A stretch of 62,593 nucleotides of DNA from Actinomycetota bacterium (GTDB taxonomy: Bacteria; Actinomycetota; UBA4738; HRBIN12): assembly GCA_046724395.1 (NCBI GenBank), contig JBKOWM010000002.1:1-62593 (forward strand), written 5' to 3'. The notes beneath the pieces are model-generated. The model had not been told where the DNA came from and did no database searches. It saw nothing but the letters and a program-made list of their open reading frames with translations. Each line of letters begins with the position of its first letter. Position 1 is the stretch's first letter. A program made the position numbers and the translations under genes. Shown in pieces: positions 5,900-17,278 of this stretch.

Positions 5900-7810
5900 T
5901 CATCTCGGCGCCGACTCGTCGGGCGCCAGGAACACGCAGCCGAGCGGCGGCACGCGCAGCTCGAGGCTCTGCCCCCGCCCGTGCGCGCCCGGCGCGCCGG
6001 CCTGGAGCGATCCGGCGTTCACGACACCGCTGCCGAAGTAGGCCTCGGAATCCGAGCTGAGGATCTCCCGCCACGCGCCGCCGCACGGGACGCCGAGACG
6101 GAACGCCTCGTGCGTGACGGGCGTGAAGTTCGCGATGAAGACAACGGCGTCCCGCTCGTCGACGCCTCGGCGCGCGAACGACAAGACGCTCTGGCCGCGG
6201 TTACCGGCGTCGATCCATTCGAAGCCGCGGGGGTCAACATCGAAGGCGTGCATCGCGGGGATGTCGCGGTACACGCGGTTGAGATCGCGGACCCATCGAC
6301 GCACGCCCTCGTGCTCGTCGTAGCGCAGGAGCCCCCAGTCCACCGAACCGTCGTGATCCCACTCCCACGGCTGGCCGATCTCGGCGCCCATGAACAGGAG
6401 CTTCTTGCCGCTCTGCCCGTACTGATAGCCGATCAACAGCCGCAGGTTGGCGAGCTGCTGCCACCGGTCCCCCGGCATCTTGCGAAGCAGGGAGCCCTTG
6501 CCGTGGACGACCTCGTCGTGCGAGAGCGGGAGCACGAAGTTCTCGTGCCACGCGTAGACCTGCCGGAACGTGAGCTCGTCGTGGTGGTACCGGCGATGAA
6601 CCGGATCGCGCCGCAGGTATCCCAGCGTGTCGTGCATCCAGCCCATGTCCCACTTCAGGCCGAACCCGAGCCCGCCGACGTCGGTCGGGCGCGAGACCAT
6701 CGGCCAAGCCGTCGATTCCTCGGCCAGGGTCTGGACGTCGGGGAACTCCGCGTACACCCGTGCGTTCAGGTGCCGCAGGAACCCGATCGCGTCCAGATTC
6801 TCCCGGCCGCCGTACTCGTTCGGCAGCCACTCGCCGTCCTCGCGCGAGTAGTCGAGGTACAGCATCGATGCCACCGCATCCACGCGCAGCCCGTCGACGT
6901 GGTATGCGTCCAGCCAGAACGTCGCGCTGGACGTCAGAAAGCTCTGAACCTCGCGGCGTCCGTAGTTGAAGATCAGCGTGTTCCAGTCGGGGTGATAGCC
7001 GCGGCGACGGTCGGCATGCTCGAACAGGTGCGTCCCGTCGAAGTACGCGAGGCCGTGCTCGTCGGACGGGAAGTGCGACGGGACCCAGTCGAGGATGACG
7101 CCGATCCCCGCGCGGTGCAGCGCGTCGATAAGCGCCATGAGATCCTGCGGTGTGCCGAAGCGGCTCGTCGGCGCAAAGTAGCCCGTTGTTTGGTAACCCC
7201 ACGAGCCCGCGAACGGATGCTCCATAACGGGCAGCAGTTCGACGTGCGTGAATCCCATCTCGACGACGTGCTCGGTCAGGCGCTCGGCGAGCTCGCGGTA
7301 CGTGAGCCAGCGTCCGCCGTCGGCGCGCATCCACGATCCCACGTGGAGCTCGTAGATCGACATCGGCGCCGAGAGGGCGTTGCGGCTGCGTCGGCTCGCC
7401 ATCCAGTCGGCGTCGTCCCAGTCGTACGACAGATCCCAGACGATCGAACCCGTCCGCGGCGGCGTCTCGGCATGGAAGGCGAACGGATCGGCCTTGTCGA
7501 CGCGGTATCCGCCCCACCTTGACCGGATGTGGAACTTGTATATGGTCCCCGGCAGCATGCCCGGCATGAACCGCGCCCAGATGCCGGAGCTCTCGACCGG
7601 CTCCAGGGCGTCGGCGTCCGGGTTCCAGCCGTTGAAGTCGCCGATCACGCTCACGCGCTCGGCGTTCGGCGCCCACACGGCGAGCGATGCGCCGTCCGGC
7701 GCGGCGTGCACGCCCATCTTCTGCCACAGCCGCGTGTGGGTGCCCTCGTTGAACAGGTAGACGTCGTCGGACGACAGCGCCGACGACGTTCGCGCGTTGA
7801 CAGCGCTCAA
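5900..7810 (-). CDS. glgB: 1,4-alpha-glucan branching enzyme GlgB (short N-terminus form, about 636 aa)
   Basis: Motifs GVILDWVPSHF, VDGLRVDAVASMLYLDY, LAEESTAWP and LPLSHDEVVHGK. TTG at 7808-7810 overlaps the malQ TGA (TTGA). The rest of the 1001-aa ORF upstream is Arg/Pro/Gly-rich and overlaps malQ. Confidence 0.88.
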   Translation of the reverse strand: MSAVNARTSSALSSDDVYLFNEGTHTRLWQKMGVHAAPDGASLAVWAPNAERVSVIGDFNGWNPDADALEPVESSGIWARFMPGMLPGTIYKFHIRSRWGGYRVDKADPFAFHAETPPRTGSIVWDLSYDWDDADWMASRRSRNALSAPMSIYELHVGSWMRADGGRWLTYRELAERLTEHVVEMGFTHVELLPVMEHPFAGSWGYQTTGYFAPTSRFGTPQDLMALIDALHRAGIGVILDWVPSHFPSDEHGLAYFDGTHLFEHADRRRGYHPDWNTLIFNYGRREVQSFLTSSATFWLDAYHVDGLRVDAVASMLYLDYSREDGEWLPNEYGGRENLDAIGFLRHLNARVYAEFPDVQTLAEESTAWPMVSRPTDVGGLGFGLKWDMGWMHDTLGYLRRDPVHRRYHHDELTFRQVYAWHENFVLPLSHDEVVHGKGSLLRKMPGDRWQQLANLRLLIGYQYGQSGKKLLFMGAEIGQPWEWDHDGSVDWGLLRYDEHEGVRRWVRDLNRVYRDIPAMHAFDVDPRGFEWIDAGNRGQSVLSFARRGVDERDAVVFIANFTPVTHEAFRLGVPCGGAWREILSSDSEAYFGSGVVNAGSLQAGAPGAHGRGQSLELRVPPLGCVFLAPDESAPR

Positions 7811-9816
7811 GCTGCCTCCGTTCGCCGCGCGACCGCCGCCCGCTCGCGCGCCAGCGCGTCGATGAACCGGTTCAGCTGCGTATCGGCCATGAGCTCGTCG
7901 ATGGACATCCGGGACCTGCCGCGCCAATTCGCCCGTTCCAGGCCCGTGCCCGGGACGTTCTGCGGACGCTCCTCGAGCCAGAGATCCTCGAGGGAGACGA
8001 TCGCGAGCGCGGCGTCGCTGCGTCCGAGGAACCGCAGTGCGGCCTCGAGCAGATCCACATCTGCCGGGTCCCCCGCGCCGAGGAGTCCGCGGTCCCGCAG
8101 GCCCTCGACGATCGCCTGCCGGATCCGGACGCGCTCGAGAGCGCGCCGGTCGGCTTCGAGGGCGTCGAGCAGGCCGAGCTCCGCGACCATCCGGACGTCG
8201 TCGCCGGAGCAGAACGAAGCCCACGTCGGGAGGTCGTGCGTGCCGAGGGAGGCGACGGACCCACGAGGTGGATCGCGCAGCGCCGGCTCGGCTTCGAACT
8301 GGACGACGTAGCTGGTGTGAACCCGGTGCCGGCGCATCGCCCGCCGGACGTACCCGGGAACCGTGCCAAGATCCTCGCCGACGATCGCCGCGCCAGCGCG
8401 GTGGGCCTCGATCGACAGCAGTGCATACCACTCCTGCGCGCGGTAGCTCACGTACGCCCCATGTCGCGGGTCGATGCCCCGCGGGACCCAGAAGAGCCGA
8501 TGCAGCCCCATGACGTGATCGATCCGCAGGGCGGAGGCGTACCTGAGGAGGTTCGCGACGACCGCCCGCGGGTAGGCGTAGCCGTCCTCGCGGATGCGCT
8601 CCGGATGCGGTGGTGGAAACCCCCAGTCCTGCCCGCCCGAGAAGAACTGGTCGGGCGGCGCCCCGGTCGAGGCCTCCAGGGCGAACGCGGCGCGATGCCG
8701 CCAGACGTCGTAGCTCGCCCCATTGGCGCCGAGCGGCAGATCGAGACACAGCCCGCGACCCTCGGCCGCCGCCTTCTCGACGACGCCGGCGAGCTGTCGC
8801 TGGGCGAGCCACTGCGCGAAGAGGTGGTAGCGGCCGAGGGGATCGGATTCGGGTGCGCCGCGGAGTCGTCCGTCGCGCGCGCCGGCCGGCCAGGTCCCCC
8901 ACCACGCCCGGCGTCGGTCGACCTCGGCGCGGAACCGGGCGTAATCGCGCAGCTGCGGCGTCTCAGACACGAAGCGCTCGTACGACCGTGGGCGCGCACG
9001 CCGAAAGAAGCGCTCGGCCAGCGGCTCGAGCGCCGCCCGCTTGGCAGCCGCCACCGTCCGGTAGTCCACGAGGCCGCCACCGCCCCGTGTCCGCGGAGCG
9101 CCGGCAAGCCGAGCATTGGGATCCGCGCCTCGCGCCCGGTCGACGTCGACGAAGATCTCGTTCCAGAACAGGCGGCTCGCCGGCGAGTACGGACTCGGCT
9201 CGAACGGCTCGTCGAGGAACGTCGCCAGCAGCGGTAGCGTGCTCAGCATCGATGCCCCCCCGCGGGCCGCCCAGCGGTCGAGCTCGCCGAGCTCGGTGAA
9301 CGAACCGATCCCCGCAGCGTCGGCGGTGCGGCGGAGCGCGTACAGCGGCGCGAAGACCGCCCAGGAGCCGGGAGGCATGGCCGGCGCGCGCGTCGGTGCG
9401 GAGAAGATCGTCGCCGTCGATCGCGTCGACGACGTCTCGATGCACAGCGTGTGGTACCCCGCCGGGAGCCGCTCGGGCGTGGAGACGAGGGAAGCATTGG
9501 GTCTCGACGTGTCGAGGCGGATGCAGCCCCCGTCCTCGAGCTCGACCCGCAGGCTGGCCGATGCCGGCGCGCGGATCTCGGCGTCCCGAAGTCGCCCGTC
9601 CCATGCGACCAGGACCGGCTGCACGATCCGCCGCTCGAGCTCCCGCCTCCGCTCGACGAGGGCGCCGGCGGCGTCTGGAACGTGCTCGATCGGCGCGCCG
9701 AGCGCGCGGAGGGCCGCAATGAGACTCTCCGATGGGGTCCGGACGCTCCGCCCGCCGGAGTCCGTATAGGAGGGCTGCACGCCGTACTCTCGGGCGAGGT
9801 CGGCGAGCGCCTGCAT
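7807..9816 (-). CDS. malQ: 4-alpha-glucanotransferase MalQ (GH77 amylomaltase)
   Basis: Motifs LRIDHVMGLHRLFWVP, IVGEDLGTVPGYV and LGTHDLPTW. The ATG at 9814-9816 (MQALADLAREYGVQPSY) lies 11 nt after the treS-mak stop. Confidence 0.9.
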   Translation of the reverse strand: MQALADLAREYGVQPSYTDSGGRSVRTPSESLIAALRALGAPIEHVPDAAGALVERRRELERRIVQPVLVAWDGRLRDAEIRAPASASLRVELEDGGCIRLDTSRPNASLVSTPERLPAGYHTLCIETSSTRSTATIFSAPTRAPAMPPGSWAVFAPLYALRRTADAAGIGSFTELGELDRWAARGGASMLSTLPLLATFLDEPFEPSPYSPASRLFWNEIFVDVDRARGADPNARLAGAPRTRGGGGLVDYRTVAAAKRAALEPLAERFFRRARPRSYERFVSETPQLRDYARFRAEVDRRRAWWGTWPAGARDGRLRGAPESDPLGRYHLFAQWLAQRQLAGVVEKAAAEGRGLCLDLPLGANGASYDVWRHRAAFALEASTGAPPDQFFSGGQDWGFPPPHPERIREDGYAYPRAVVANLLRYASALRIDHVMGLHRLFWVPRGIDPRHGAYVSYRAQEWYALLSIEAHRAGAAIVGEDLGTVPGYVRRAMRRHRVHTSYVVQFEAEPALRDPPRGSVASLGTHDLPTWASFCSGDDVRMVAELGLLDALEADRRALERVRIRQAIVEGLRDRGLLGAGDPADVDLLEAALRFLGRSDAALAIVSLEDLWLEERPQNVPGTGLERANWRGRSRMSIDELMADTQLNRFIDALARERAAVARRTEAA

Positions 9817-9827
9817 AGCGGGCTGGG

Positions 9828-13228
<3,401 letters not shown>

Positions 13229-13232
<4 letters not shown>

Positions 13233-15229
13233 GCCCGGGCCTCCATCGGCTCGACCCGCAGGATGTGCGCCGGCTGACGTTCGGGGCGTAGCTCGACGAA
13301 GTTGTAGGCACCGCCCCACGCGAACGCGGCGCCGCTCAGAAGGTCGCGCGCCACGAAGGGAGCGTCGTCGGCGAGGCCGAGCTCGGGCATGTCGAGGCTC
13401 GTCCATCCCGCCTGCGGGAATCCCGGATCGAGGTTCGCCACCACGAGCACGACGTTCGATCCGTCCGGCGTCCGCTTGCTGTACGCCAGTAACGAGGGGT
13501 TGTCGGTACTGTGGAAGCGCAGTTGACGGTCGTGCTGGAGGGCGGGCTCGGCGCGGCGGATCCCGTTCACGCGGGCGACGAGCTCTCGCATGGCGCCGCC
13601 GCCCCGCGGATCGCGCCAGCGGATCTCGTATTTCTCCGAGTGGAGATACTCTTCGGAACCGGGCTCGCGCGGCTCGTGCTCGAGATGCTCGAACGCCGGA
13701 CCGTAGATGCCGTAGTTCGCGCCGAGCGTTGCCGCGAGGACGAACCGCAGCCGGAAGGCTGCGGGATTCCCGCTGTGCAGCTGATCGGTAAGGATGTCCG
13801 GCGTGTTGGGCCACAGGTTCGCGCGAAAGAAGTCGACGAGCGGCGGGCTCGTCAGCTCCTCGAAGTACGCGCGCAGCTCGTCACCTCCACGCCGCCACGC
13901 GAAGTATGTGTACGACTGGTCGAACCCGAGCTTGGCCAGCCGGTACATCACTTTGGGGCGCGTGAACGCCTCCGACAGGAAGAGGACGTCGGGATGCTCC
14001 CGTTTGATCTCCGCGATGAGCCACTCCCAGAAGGCAAGCGGCTTCGTGTGCGGGTTGTCGACGCGGAACACACGTACGCCGTGATCGACCCAAAAGCGCA
14101 CCACGTCCAACAGCGCCTCCCACAGCGCCCGCCAGTCCGCCGTCTCGAAGTCCAGCGGAACGATGTCCTCGTACTTCTTCGGCGGGTTCTCCGCATAGCG
14201 GATCGAGCCGTCGGGCCGGTGTCGGAACCAGTCCGGGTGCTCCCGCACCCATGGGTGGTCGGGTGAGCACTGAAAGGCTAGGTCGAGCGCGAGCTCCATG
14301 TGGTGCTCCAGCAGCGTCTTGGTGAGCAGCTCGACGTCGTCGACCGTCCCGATGTCCGGATCGACGGCCGTGTGGCCGCCGTCCTCGTTCCCGATGGCCC
14401 AAGGAGAGCCGGGGTCGCCCGCCACGGCGTGCATGGCGTTGTTCGGACCCTTGCGCTTTGTACGCCCGATGGGGTGGATCGGCGGCAGATACAGCACGTC
14501 GAATCCGCGTTCCGCGAGCTCCGGGACGAGGTCCGCGACGTCGCGCAACGTCCCCGGCCGACCGGCCTCCGGCGAGGCCGACCGGGGGAAGAGCTCGTAC
14601 CACGCGCCCCATCGCGCGCGCTCGCGGTCGACGGCCAGCCGAAACTCCGCCGACGCCGACGCGCCACGCCGTTGATCGGGGTACCGCATCATGAGCGCTG
14701 CGAGCTCCTCCGACGTGGCGACCTCGGCATATTCCTCCAGCCTCGGCCGCCTCAGGCGCTGCGCCCACTCCCTCAGCCGATCGACGTCGGGTCCGATCGC
14801 GCGACGCGCCGCCGCCGAGACGAGTTGCGCTCCGACGCCGAGCTCGGGCCCTAGGTCCTGCTCGGCGGCGAGGCGTTTTAACAGGTCCTCGCGCCACGAC
14901 CCGAACGCGTCGATCCACGCACCGACCTGGAACCGGTATTCGCCCACCTCGACGACGCGGAACGATCCGCGCCACCGGTCGTTGCCGTCGAGGAGCGTCA
15001 TCGCCGACTCCTGCCAATCGTCGGCGCGCTCGGATCGAAAGCGGATCGCGGCGCCGATCCGGTCGTGGCCGTCCGCGAACACGTCCGCCTCGACGTCGAC
15101 GAGATCGCCGACGATGCGCTTGGCGGGAAAGCGGCCGCCGTCGACGACGGGCTGTACGCCCTCGATGACGACCCGGTTGCGACCCTCGTTCGGTACCACC
15201 TGATCTCCCCGACCGGCGCCCGCCGTCAC
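13229..15229 (-). CDS. glgE: Alpha-1,4-glucan:maltose-1-phosphate maltosyltransferase GlgE
   Basis: 666 aa. VIEGVQPVVDGGRFPAKRIVGD, VFRVDNPHTKPLAFWEWLI, FLSEAFTRPKVMYRLAKLGF. Confidence 0.95.
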
Positions 15230-15298: not shown

Positions 15299-15409
15299 TT
15301 ACTCGGTCTGGACCGGCTGGTCTTTGTGCTCCTCGAGGTGCCGCTCCAACGCCGCCTCGTCGTCGAACGTCGAGCCGCAGACCGGGCAGGTCTTGGTGAG
15401 ATCGCCCAT
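15299..15409 (-). CDS. Unannotated 36-aa ORF encoding a single classical C2H2 zinc-finger motif
   Basis: Hand translation: MGDLTKTCPVCGSTFDDEAALERHLEEHKDQPVQTE. The spacing is C-X2-C-X3-F-X5-L-X2-H-X3-H. 34 of 36 codons end in G/C. GGTAGGA lies 7 nt upstream of the ATG. It is below the ORF-track size cutoff. Confidence 0.45.
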   Translation of the reverse strand: MGDLTKTCPVCGSTFDDEAALERHLEEHKDQPVQTE

Positions 15410-15641: not shown

Positions 15642-15848
15642 CTACTGGCCGCCCTTTTGCACGTATGACGTCACGAACTCCTCGGCGTTCTCCTCGAGGA
15701 CGGCGTCGATCTCATCGAGCAGGTCGTCCAGGTCGTGACGGACCTCGTCGGCGTGGCGCGCGGACCGGCGCGAGCTCTGCTCGCGCGCCTCCGCGTCGTC
15801 GCGGCCGCGGTTGCGGCGCTGCTGCTGTTGCCGGATCCGTGTCGCCAT
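15642..15848 (-). CDS. pup: Prokaryotic ubiquitin-like protein Pup (68 aa, C-terminal GGQ)
   Basis: MATRIRQQQQ...HDLDDLLDEIDAVLEENAEEFVTSYVQKGGQ matches the Pup C-terminal signature. GGAGGTG SD lies just upstream of the ATG at 15846-15848. The 360-aa ORF-track entry is an artefactual extension. Confidence 0.9.
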   Translation of the reverse strand: MATRIRQQQQRRNRGRDDAEAREQSSRRSARHADEVRHDLDDLLDEIDAVLEENAEEFVTSYVQKGGQ

Positions 15849-15931
15849 CACACCTCCGATCCTCGAGGTGTCGGCGTCCGCCGGGCGCGGTTGATGGCCC
15901 GTAGGGGTGGTCTTGATGCAGTCCGGCCGGA

Positions 15932-17278
15932 TCACTCCGGGGCCGTCGACCGCCCCCCCGGTGGCCAGGCGAAACCGTCCCACGGGTCGTAGTCCACCTC
16001 GAGGGGCTCCTGCGGCGGGCGGTCGGGCTCGGGGACGTTGCGAAGGTTGAGGCGGATCCTCGTCCACGTCGTGTGACGGCCGCGCATCGCGTCGATCAGG
16101 ACGTCGGCCGGCTGGAGCCGTTCCCAGACGTCGGGATGGCGCTGGCGCCAGCGATCGAGTCCGGCCATCGCCTCGGCCTCCGTCTCGGCGCGAGCGATCT
16201 CGATGAGCGGCATCGTCGATCGACGCCTGCCCGCCGACCCTCCATATCGCGCGGTTGCCCCGGAACGCGCCGACGTGGACGGGCGTCGCTTCGAGGGCTG
16301 GACACGCGGAGGCTCGCCGGGCTGCTTCTCGTAGTGCGGCGGCCATGGCGCGTCGCCCAGCCCCGCCTCCTCGTGTTCCATCGAGAGCTCCAGCAGGCGA
16401 TCGAGCGATCCGGGCGCGTCGTCTATCCCGGCGGCGGGATCCCCGATCGTGGCAACACGCTCGGGCACGGTATCGATCGTGAACGCGGCCGGGTCGCACG
16501 CCGGGACCTCGTCCCACGCCAGCGGCGTCGAGACCCGGGCGTCGGGTGTGGGGCGGACCGAGTAGGCGGACGCCGTCGTCCGGTCTTTGGCGTTCTGGTT
16601 GTAGTCCAGGAACACGCCGTGACGCTCCTCCTTCCACCACTTGCTCGTCGCCAGGTCCGGCGCGCGCCGCTCGACCTCGCGCGCGACCGCAAGCGCGGCG
16701 CGTCGAACCTGCGTGAACGTCCACCGCGGCTCGATCCGAGAGAAGACGTGCATACCGCGCGACCCCGACGTCTTAGGCCAACCGACGAGGCCGTAGGCTC
16801 CGAGGACGTCGCGCGTGACCATCGCGACGTCACGGACCTGACTCCACTCGACCCCGCGCACCGGATCGAGGTCGACGCGGAGCTCGTCGGGATGCTCGAG
16901 ATCGTCGGCCCGGACCGGGTGCGGGTTGAGGTCGACGCATCCGAGGTTCACGATCCACGCAAGCTGCGCCGCGTTCGTCACAACGATCTCGTCCGCCGTG
17001 CGCCCGGACGGAAACGCCAGCGTTACGGTCTCGATCCACGCCGGCCGAGACGACGGTGCGCGCTTCTGGAAGAACGGCGGCTCCTCGACGCCGTTCACGT
17101 AGCGCTTCAGCGCCATCGGCCGCCCGGCGACCCCGCGAACCGCCCCGTCGCGCACGGCCAGGTAGAAGCGGACCAGATCGATCTTCGTGTAGCCGGTCTT
17201 CGGGAAGAAGACCTTGTCCGGGTTGGAGATCGAGACCTCGTGGCCGTCGATCTCGAGGGTCGCCTTTCGCGACGGCAT
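15932..17278 (-). CDS. Stand-alone LigD-type primase-polymerase (NHEJ PolDom / Prim-Pol-like) with a C-terminal extension of about 150 aa
   Basis: ISNPDKVFFP, MALKRYVNGVEEPPFFQKRAP, GCVDLNPHPVR, ELRVDLDP, WPKTSGSRGMHVF, VFLDYNQNAKDRTTASAYSVRP. No ligase or nuclease domain is present in the ORF. Confidence 0.85.
   Translation of the reverse strand: MPSRKATLEIDGHEVSISNPDKVFFPKTGYTKIDLVRFYLAVRDGAVRGVAGRPMALKRYVNGVEEPPFFQKRAPSSRPAWIETVTLAFPSGRTADEIVVTNAAQLAWIVNLGCVDLNPHPVRADDLEHPDELRVDLDPVRGVEWSQVRDVAMVTRDVLGAYGLVGWPKTSGSRGMHVFSRIEPRWTFTQVRRAALAVAREVERRAPDLATSKWWKEERHGVFLDYNQNAKDRTTASAYSVRPTPDARVSTPLAWDEVPACDPAAFTIDTVPERVATIGDPAAGIDDAPGSLDRLLELSMEHEEAGLGDAPWPPHYEKQPGEPPRVQPSKRRPSTSARSGATARYGGSAGRRRSTMPLIEIARAETEAEAMAGLDRWRQRHPDVWERLQPADVLIDAMRGRHTTWTRIRLNLRNVPEPDRPPQEPLEVDYDPWDGFAWPPGGRSTAPE

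Follow-up and report, generated by a model that had tools for sequence, protein, structure and literature searches.

A second, divergent Pup gene located apart from the pupylation operon in an Actinomycetota genome

The pup2 locus and its neighbours

The stretch of DNA analysed here, referred to as the window, comprises 62,593 nucleotides of an Actinomycetota bacterium (GTDB lineage Bacteria; Actinomycetota; UBA4738; HRBIN12) and corresponds to positions 1 to 62,593 of the forward strand of contig JBKOWM010000002.1 in assembly GCA_046724395.1; this contig is designated C75 below. On the minus strand, at 15642..15848, lies a stand-alone gene of 68 codons that is termed pup2, being the second Pup gene of the genome. 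It starts with an ATG at 15848-15846, which is preceded at a distance of 4 nt by a GGAGG Shine-Dalgarno sequence (15853-15857), and it stops with a TAG at 15644-15642. The product, 68 aa in length, has the sequence MATRIRQQQQRRNRGRDDAEAREQSSRRSARHADEVRHDLDDLLDEIDAVLEENAEEFVTSYVQKGGQ and ends in DDLLDEIDAVLEENAEEFVTSYVQKGGQ, the last residues being QKGGQ with the TAG directly after them.

The first-pass annotation had recognised a clear Pup signature and a terminal glutamine in this product, and both observations stand: the protein scores 80.4 bits against the Pfam Pup profile PF05639 (E 1.9e-22, cut-off 27) and 68.2 bits against NCBIfam TIGR03687 (cut-off 41.45), and its C-terminus is GGQ. Its size and its end fit the Pup class, members of which have about 60-70 residues and terminate in Gly-Gly-Gln or Gly-Gly-Glu. 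An ungapped alignment of residues 41-68 with the Mycobacterium Pup peptide seen in solved complexes shows identity at 24 of 28 positions (the matched chains come from the Dop complexes 7oxy and 7oy3, the PafA complex 4bjr, and the Mpa complexes 3m9d, 3m91 and 7px9), and the same residues are also identical at 24 of 28 positions to the canonical Pup of the same genome. With both family profiles over their cut-offs, pup2 encodes a genuine Pup, and the window copy is intact. Its junction with the upstream gene is bridged by contigs assembled from soil-metagenome runs that belong to three studies (X1 record 3, X2 record 18 and X6 record 28), and that with the downstream mini-ORF by one contig (X2 record 17); one of the bridging runs may be the source sample of the window itself. 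A search for sequencing runs that contain the locus returned none of RNA, and the four that were compared with it consist of DNA contigs.

The immediate neighbours are as the first-pass annotation had described them, a polymerase gene with its stop codon 83 nt upstream and a zinc-finger mini-ORF downstream. The former (15932..17278, minus strand, co-directional with pup2) encodes a LigD-type primase-polymerase (PrimPol) of 448 aa, which matches PF21686 over residues 31-281 (E 4e-86) and scores 209.4 bits against TIGR02778, slightly below the cut-off of 214.7. Some 160 aa at its C-terminus (residues ~290-448) form an extension that has no Pfam match. Orthologues in the genomes G002 and G020 are 72-82% identical, aligned over nearly their full length. 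The spacer between the PrimPol stop codon and the pup2 start codon (15849..15931) holds the Shine-Dalgarno sequence and an upstream element that is considered below.

Downstream of pup2, the mini-ORF (15299..15409, minus strand) is an ORF call of 36 codons with the product MGDLTKTCPVCGSTFDDEAALERHLEEHKDQPVQTE, in which a CxxC...HxxxH arrangement resembles a C2H2 pattern. Its codon bias is strongly that of a coding sequence (GC3 0.94, GC2 0.39), and no NCBIfam match was found for it. The mini-ORF also lies directly upstream of glgE in G002 (83% identical), a genome without pup2, and in G004 (72%); it travels with glgE, not with pup2. In the window, glgE (maltosyltransferase; 13229..15229, minus strand; PF11896 and PF21702) is the first gene of a glgE / treS-mak / malQ run. 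This alpha-glucan run occupies 5900-15229 of the minus strand directly downstream and comprises glgE, a treS-mak fusion, malQ and a 636-aa ORF (5900-7810), the product of which is 35% identical to a portion of the treS-mak product over about 100 residues. Four-base overlaps of start and stop codons are present at 7807-7810, 9828-9831 and 13229-13232, and the run is collinear with its counterparts in G002 and G004.

In six-frame whole-genome profile searches for the Pup-ligase/Dop, proteasome and Mpa families, no dop, pafA, mpa or prcAB was detected on contig C75, in agreement with the first-pass annotation, which had seen no mpa/arc, dop, prcBA or pafA in the window. Hence pup2 is not adjacent to dop, prcB or pafA, its neighbours being the PrimPol gene, the mini-ORF and glgE; such adjacency is the typical context of pup, and no requirement for membership of the Pup family. 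A search with the sigma-70 consensus found no promoter-like site near pup2, and a search for intrinsic terminators in the same region returned only two terminator-like matches, both on the opposite strand within the mini-ORF.

The canonical pupylation system of the same genome

A complete pupylation system is encoded elsewhere in the assembly. Contig C136 carries an intact dop-pup-prcB-prcA-pafA locus in the textbook order, with a Pup of its own that is 65 aa long and ends in GGQ. The scores of Dop (TIGR03688, 644.6 bits), PrcB (292.4 bits), PrcA (312.6 bits) and PafA (TIGR03686, 717 bits) are all above the NCBIfam equivalog cut-offs. The contig terminates just past dop, and mpa/arc is found at the start of another contig, C166 (TIGR03689, 770.8 bits, over the cut-off). 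The first-pass annotation had taken the window gene for an orphan, a label that it would have given up were the gene one of two copies in a genome with a canonical locus; the whole-genome search for dop, pafA, mpa, prcAB and a second pup found all of these, the window gene being one of two copies, so the label does not hold. Instead, pup2 encodes an additional form of the tag that has diverged. Above cut-off, the genome contains only two genes of the Pup-ligase family and one Mpa gene, and with this single set of Dop, PafA and Mpa, any Pup in the cell must therefore share the same enzymes.

The co-existence of two Pups in one cell is deduced and not proven, because the assembly (3.11 Mb) is divided into 173 contigs, is 90% complete and has an estimated contamination of 2.49%. 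The GC content of C75 (69.1%) is close to that of C136 (69.3%). At least nine genes of C75 are collinear with contig C73 of G002, a genome of the same genus, at 67-83% amino-acid identity, and the canonical Pup of C136 groups in the tree described below with that of G001, a further member of the genus. C75 and C136 appear to be parts of one organism. The canonical Pups of the window's family mostly end in GGE, as do those of G001 and G002, and that of the present genome in GGQ; the terminal residue flips often between Q and E in both paralogues.

Divergence, distribution and genomic contexts of the Pup2 group

The relationship between the two Pup types was studied with a maximum-likelihood tree of 71 sequences, in which 31 canonical Pups of the family and its sister families (among them L015, which belongs to G037, an unpublished genome) were combined with 29 extra copies, six of these being metagenomic proteins, and with 11 Pups from other lineages. 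All but one of the extra copies (28/29) lie on one side of a branch of length 1.28 with support of 100/100, a split to be read as a bipartition and not as a proven clade, with an alignment of only 67 columns, an unknown root and a bootstrap that had not fully settled. The sole exception is the extra copy of G005, which nests among the canonical Pups as a recent duplicate. Inside the group of 28, the window protein is sister (99/90) to P0002, a metagenomic protein that is 82% identical to it and ends in GGE. On this tree, the window copy is placed in a distinct paralogue group, which is named Pup2 here.

A reading of 27 non-canonical loci locates the divergence between the two groups, in that nearly all of them combine a canonical C-terminal half with an altered N-terminal half. 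The N-terminus of Pup2 is rich in arginine and histidine and begins with the pattern M-x(0-3)-R/I-[IVL]-x-[EQ]. In the N-terminal half, canonical Pups (n = 31) have on average 4.9 lysines, 2.2 arginines, 0.03 histidines and 5.7 glycines, as against 1.4, 5.5, 2.9 and 1.5, respectively, in Pup2 (n = 23). The corresponding counts are 0, 11, 2 and 1 in the 39 residues of the window Pup2, which is of an Arg/Gln-rich rather than a His-rich type, and 4, 2, 0 and 5 in the 36 residues of the canonical Pup of the same genome.

Across all 28 aligned Pup2 sequences, L40, D41, D48, LEENAE, F58, Q64 and the GG are invariant, and the last residue is Q or E. Nei-Gojobori estimates of dN/dS are below 1 in all nine Pup2 pairs, ranging from 0.20 to 0.61; by this measure the relatives of the window copy are under purifying selection, of which the strength is moderate because two of the nine values are about 0.6. 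At the same time, pup2 is absent from G001 and G002, both of the same genus. In G002, which is 95% complete, the PrimPol gene, the mini-ORF and glgE follow one another with a spacer of about 110 nt, and no pup2 remnant was detected. Judged from such comparisons, pup2 is dispensable on evolutionary time scales. Two degenerate sequences were also observed: a decayed Pup-like ORF in G011 (L057 5983-6201, G011:C8), with an Arg/His-rich N-terminus and a LEVIDEVLEEN core and without the GG[QE] end, and a C-terminal Pup fragment in the unpublished genome G037 (L055 ~1792-1932, G037:C23), the frame of which continues beyond the GG.

The distribution of additional Pups is patchy. By Pfam search, two Pup matches are present in 8 of 41 close relatives, and at least two in 42 of the 223 genomes of the family as counted from the table; five of the 42 (G086, G087, G100, G176 and G226) are unpublished, and leaving out the 12 unpublished genomes gives 37/211. 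Broken down by genus, such genomes account for 9/12 in g37, 14/24 in g19, 3/3 in g21, 2/2 in g3, 1/3 in g8 and 1/3 in g1, the genus of the window. Three Pup matches each were recorded in G120 (L132, L151), G089, G102, G122 and G155; the third Pup of G120, again a variant of the Pup2 type (MRIQEQQKSRH...), occupies a short contig of its own. A profile of the Pup2 N-terminal half matched 30 of 294 related genomes, a lower bound since it missed the Pup2 of G004, with two of the 30 unpublished (G086 and G087). Of these matches, 29 fall in the window's family and one outside it, in G280; the latter is almost identical to the g37 type and comes from a bin with 5% contamination, and its contig is probably mis-binned. 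The Pup2 group spans at least seven genera, and a canonical Pup and a Pup2 co-occur in many genomes, including the nearly closed G127, which has both on one 2.77-Mb contig.

Wider searches place the window copy among few close relatives. In a collection of 5.8 billion proteins, relatives with a MATR[IV]RQ[QE]Q start form only six clusters (P0002-P0007), which, where named, are annotated as Pup and derive from metagenome bins of Actinomycetota or Acidimicrobiales. The loci of these proteins were sought in metagenomes with a two-sequence N-terminal alignment, which returned 598 stretches, none of them confirmed by tblastn, and with a degenerate DNA pattern, which returned no matches. Scanning genome contigs with the full protein gave at least 56 loci, for which identity was 44-63% in alignments that covered most of the protein; no close Pup2 orthologue was present among the matches listed (56 loci), higher identity being confined to the common C-terminal segment. 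A profile of 28 Pup2 sequences retrieved 3207 Pups at E <=1e-3 from 1.84 billion representatives at 50% identity, and the Arg/His-rich N-terminal type was seen in at least 20 of the best 34 of these 3207. The proteins ranked first and fifth in this search, P0121 (188 aa) and P0124 (157 aa), have an N-terminus resembling a signal peptide and, after it, Pup-like repeats, two or three in tandem (..LDEIDDVLE..FV.SYVQKGG..).

The region upstream of pup2 is also conserved. The 75-110 nt that precede the start codon can be aligned across the whole set of 23 Pup2 loci examined, whatever the neighbouring genes, and show the order ...TGGTCAC-N4-5-G.GCCAT...CGG.-N~12-.CCGAYAC-N5-10-SD-ATG. The window version reads ...GGGCCAT...CGGC...GCCGACAC..., and its distal TGGTCAC-like half is degenerate. 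When the whole genome was searched with the element using nhmmer, a single site was recovered, that at 15906-15853, with a weak E of 0.018, and no second copy or other target gene was found at E <0.1. The conserved bases change frame from locus to locus, and g19 has an in-frame stop codon six codons ahead of the ATG; the element is therefore non-coding, and an in-frame N-terminal extension of pup2, for which a frame is open for 360 aa upstream, was for the same reasons rejected as a high-GC artefact. A structured RNA leader was likewise rejected, with no Rfam match to the element at E up to 5 and no base pairs in the RNAalifold consensus fold of 22 upstream regions. The element is best regarded as a candidate promoter or operator, acting at the DNA level and moving with pup2. 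Likeness to the SOS or RecA-NDp motifs was considered and set aside on grounds of both orientation and sequence.

The genomic surroundings in which solitary Pup2 genes occur fall into at least four classes. The first (class A) comprises the window, with the order PrimPol448, pup2, mini-ORF, glgE in the genome analysed here (G000, genus g1), and G004 (g3), in which pup2, the mini-ORF and glgE follow one another without the PrimPol gene. Synteny among relatives, which the first-pass annotation had raised, is thus retained in part: the succession of pup, mini-ORF and glgE recurs in another genus, in G004, whereas G002, of the same genus as the window, has the PrimPol gene, the mini-ORF and glgE without a pup. 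In class B, found in genus g19, another PrimPol paralogue of about 290 aa and a 92-aa gene are divergent from pup2. This PrimPol is 35-37% identical to that of the window, and lies about 150-180 nt from pup2 in four genomes and about 1-3 kb away in three more; in G020 it is missing from the gene calls surrounding pup2. At four g19 loci (L133, L134, L137 and L140), the conserved 92-aa gene, which has no Pfam match, comes in every case after the stand-alone PrimPol of about 290 aa. In class C (genus g21), two of three genomes have pup2 situated 20-60 nt upstream of recO and co-directional with it, and in class D (g8 and g37) the genes for an M23 peptidase, a cupredoxin and a 400-aa protein precede pup2, with osmC convergent.

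The number of PrimPol matches per genome in the carriers is about 1-6. Judged informally, the occurrence of two PrimPol paralogues beside pup2 in two genera, and of recO in a third, exceeds chance expectation, which is suggestive. A link between Pup2 and DNA repair may accordingly be treated as a lead, suggestive at most, as there are no more than two or three independent events.

Possible roles of a second Pup

Pup is intrinsically disordered, and its pairing with PafA or Mpa is well known from textbooks. The product of pup2 resembles the canonical actinobacterial Pup in matching both family profiles, in its length class (68 aa), in its C-terminal helix region and in its GGQ end, and is found in a genome that has Dop, PafA, Mpa and a 20S proteasome. 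It differs from the canonical type, as represented by Mycobacterium Pup (PDB 3m9d, 4bjr, 7oxy, 7px9), in its stand-alone locus, its Arg/His-rich and Lys/Gly-poor N-terminus, its membership of a separate group and an upstream element of its own, of which the window keeps the proximal part. From these features, pup2 probably represents an intact gene for a second Pup, a member of the divergent Pup2 group that is encoded outside the pupylation operon, is controlled by a conserved region of its own and would act as a tag by way of the single Dop, PafA and Mpa of the genome.

In this scheme, Pup2 would be produced from its own promoter and hence be separately regulated. Its terminal glutamine would be deamidated by Dop, the side chain of the resulting glutamate ligated by PafA to lysines of target proteins, and its conserved central and C-terminal helix region bound by the coiled coil of Mpa. 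Work on Mycobacterium has identified the N-terminal half of Pup as the segment that enters the pore of Mpa. The rebuilt Arg/His-rich, Lys/Gly-poor N-terminus may change the efficiency with which the conjugate is degraded, the scarcity of lysines may limit pupylation of the Pup2 tag itself, and separate regulation would let the cell deploy Pup2 under particular conditions.

A narrower proposal is that Pup2 is a condition-specific second tag, induced under DNA damage or oxidative stress by way of an operator-like element of its own, with an Arg/His-rich, lysine-poor N-terminus that alters the fate of tagged proteins and with the adjacency of PrimPol or recO genes reflecting a tie to DNA repair; this is a tentative idea, and unlikely to be correct. 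An altered fate, if it exists, might consist of faster or slower engagement by Mpa, the absence of poly-Pup chains, or recruitment to nucleic acid or metal.

Alternatively, Pup2 might never be attached to targets, and would instead occupy the groove in which Dop or PafA binds Pup, or else the coiled coil of Mpa, as a free regulator or decoy that tunes pupylation or proteasomal flux. The conservation of the binding region alongside replacement of the N-terminal half is compatible with this, as is the possession of a separate regulatory element, and a lysine-poor protein would not itself become a substrate. A ligatable end is needless in a pure decoy, however, and yet all 28 aligned Pup2 sequences retain an exact GG[QE] at the end of the ORF, with Q and E switching as freely as in true Pups, while the copies that lack this end look decayed. 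An unattached role is thus considered improbable.

Equally doubtful is the suggestion that the window copy is redundant, a duplicate that does nothing beyond what the canonical Pup does and is on its way to being lost. It would account for the patchy spread (at least two Pup matches in 42/223 family genomes), the absence from G001 and G002 of the same genus, the degenerate copies of G011 and G037, and the recent canonical-type duplicate in G005. Against this, Pup2 is old and coherent, with at least seven genera on the 100/100 branch; dN/dS is below 1 in 9/9 pairs; both the composition of the N-terminus and the upstream element are kept across contexts; and the same N-terminal type recurs in at least 20 of the best 34 library representatives. 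An artefact of binning or assembly, in which the second pup comes from another organism of the metagenome and no single cell has two, is very improbable: the 173 contigs, the 2.49% estimated contamination and the apparently mis-binned Pup2 match of G280 leave room for it, but C75 shares the gene order of G002 for at least nine genes (67-83% amino-acid identity), the GC contents of C75 and C136 agree, independent contigs bridge the pup2 junctions, and canonical Pup and Pup2 occur together in many genomes, in G127 on a single 2.77-Mb contig.

The preferred reading, that of a second tag handled by the shared enzymes, may be compared with earlier accounts of pupylation. In the relevant passages of Barandun et al. 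(2012; PMC3511204), parts of the pupylation system are described as duplicated in some species, and some organisms as having a pair of pup genes, of which one encodes PupQ and the other PupE. The number of Pups per genome is the same here, and the pair in G004 and G009 is likewise a PupE (the canonical copy) with a PupQ (the Pup2). In the genome of the window, by contrast, the second pup is alone, without duplicated enzymes, and both copies end in Q; the two-pup accounts in those passages concern duplicated systems or do not give the location of the second gene. Passages of Iyer et al. (2008; PMC2588565) have pup invariably adjacent to a PafA-family gene, a rule that the canonical pup of C136 obeys and that Pup2 breaks at every locus examined. 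Pup paralogues are not addressed in the passages considered of Hecht et al. (2020; PMC7947786). A full-text search of open-access papers and preprints found no description of a stand-alone Pup paralogue clade. What seems to be new, and modestly interesting, is a conserved Pup paralogue that is encoded by itself, is apparently regulated separately, and combines a rebuilt N-terminal half with a putative function as a tag.

For annotation, the lesson is that no pup found outside its operon should be labelled an orphan until the whole genome has been searched. Pupylation is usually presented as a system with one tag, whereas eukaryotes have many ubiquitin-like modifiers. As both tags end in ...QKGGQ/E, they would leave the same tryptic remnant, and standard pupylome proteomics therefore could not separate the two. 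If it is indeed a conserved second tag, Pup2 would constitute a natural experiment on the role of the Pup N-terminus.
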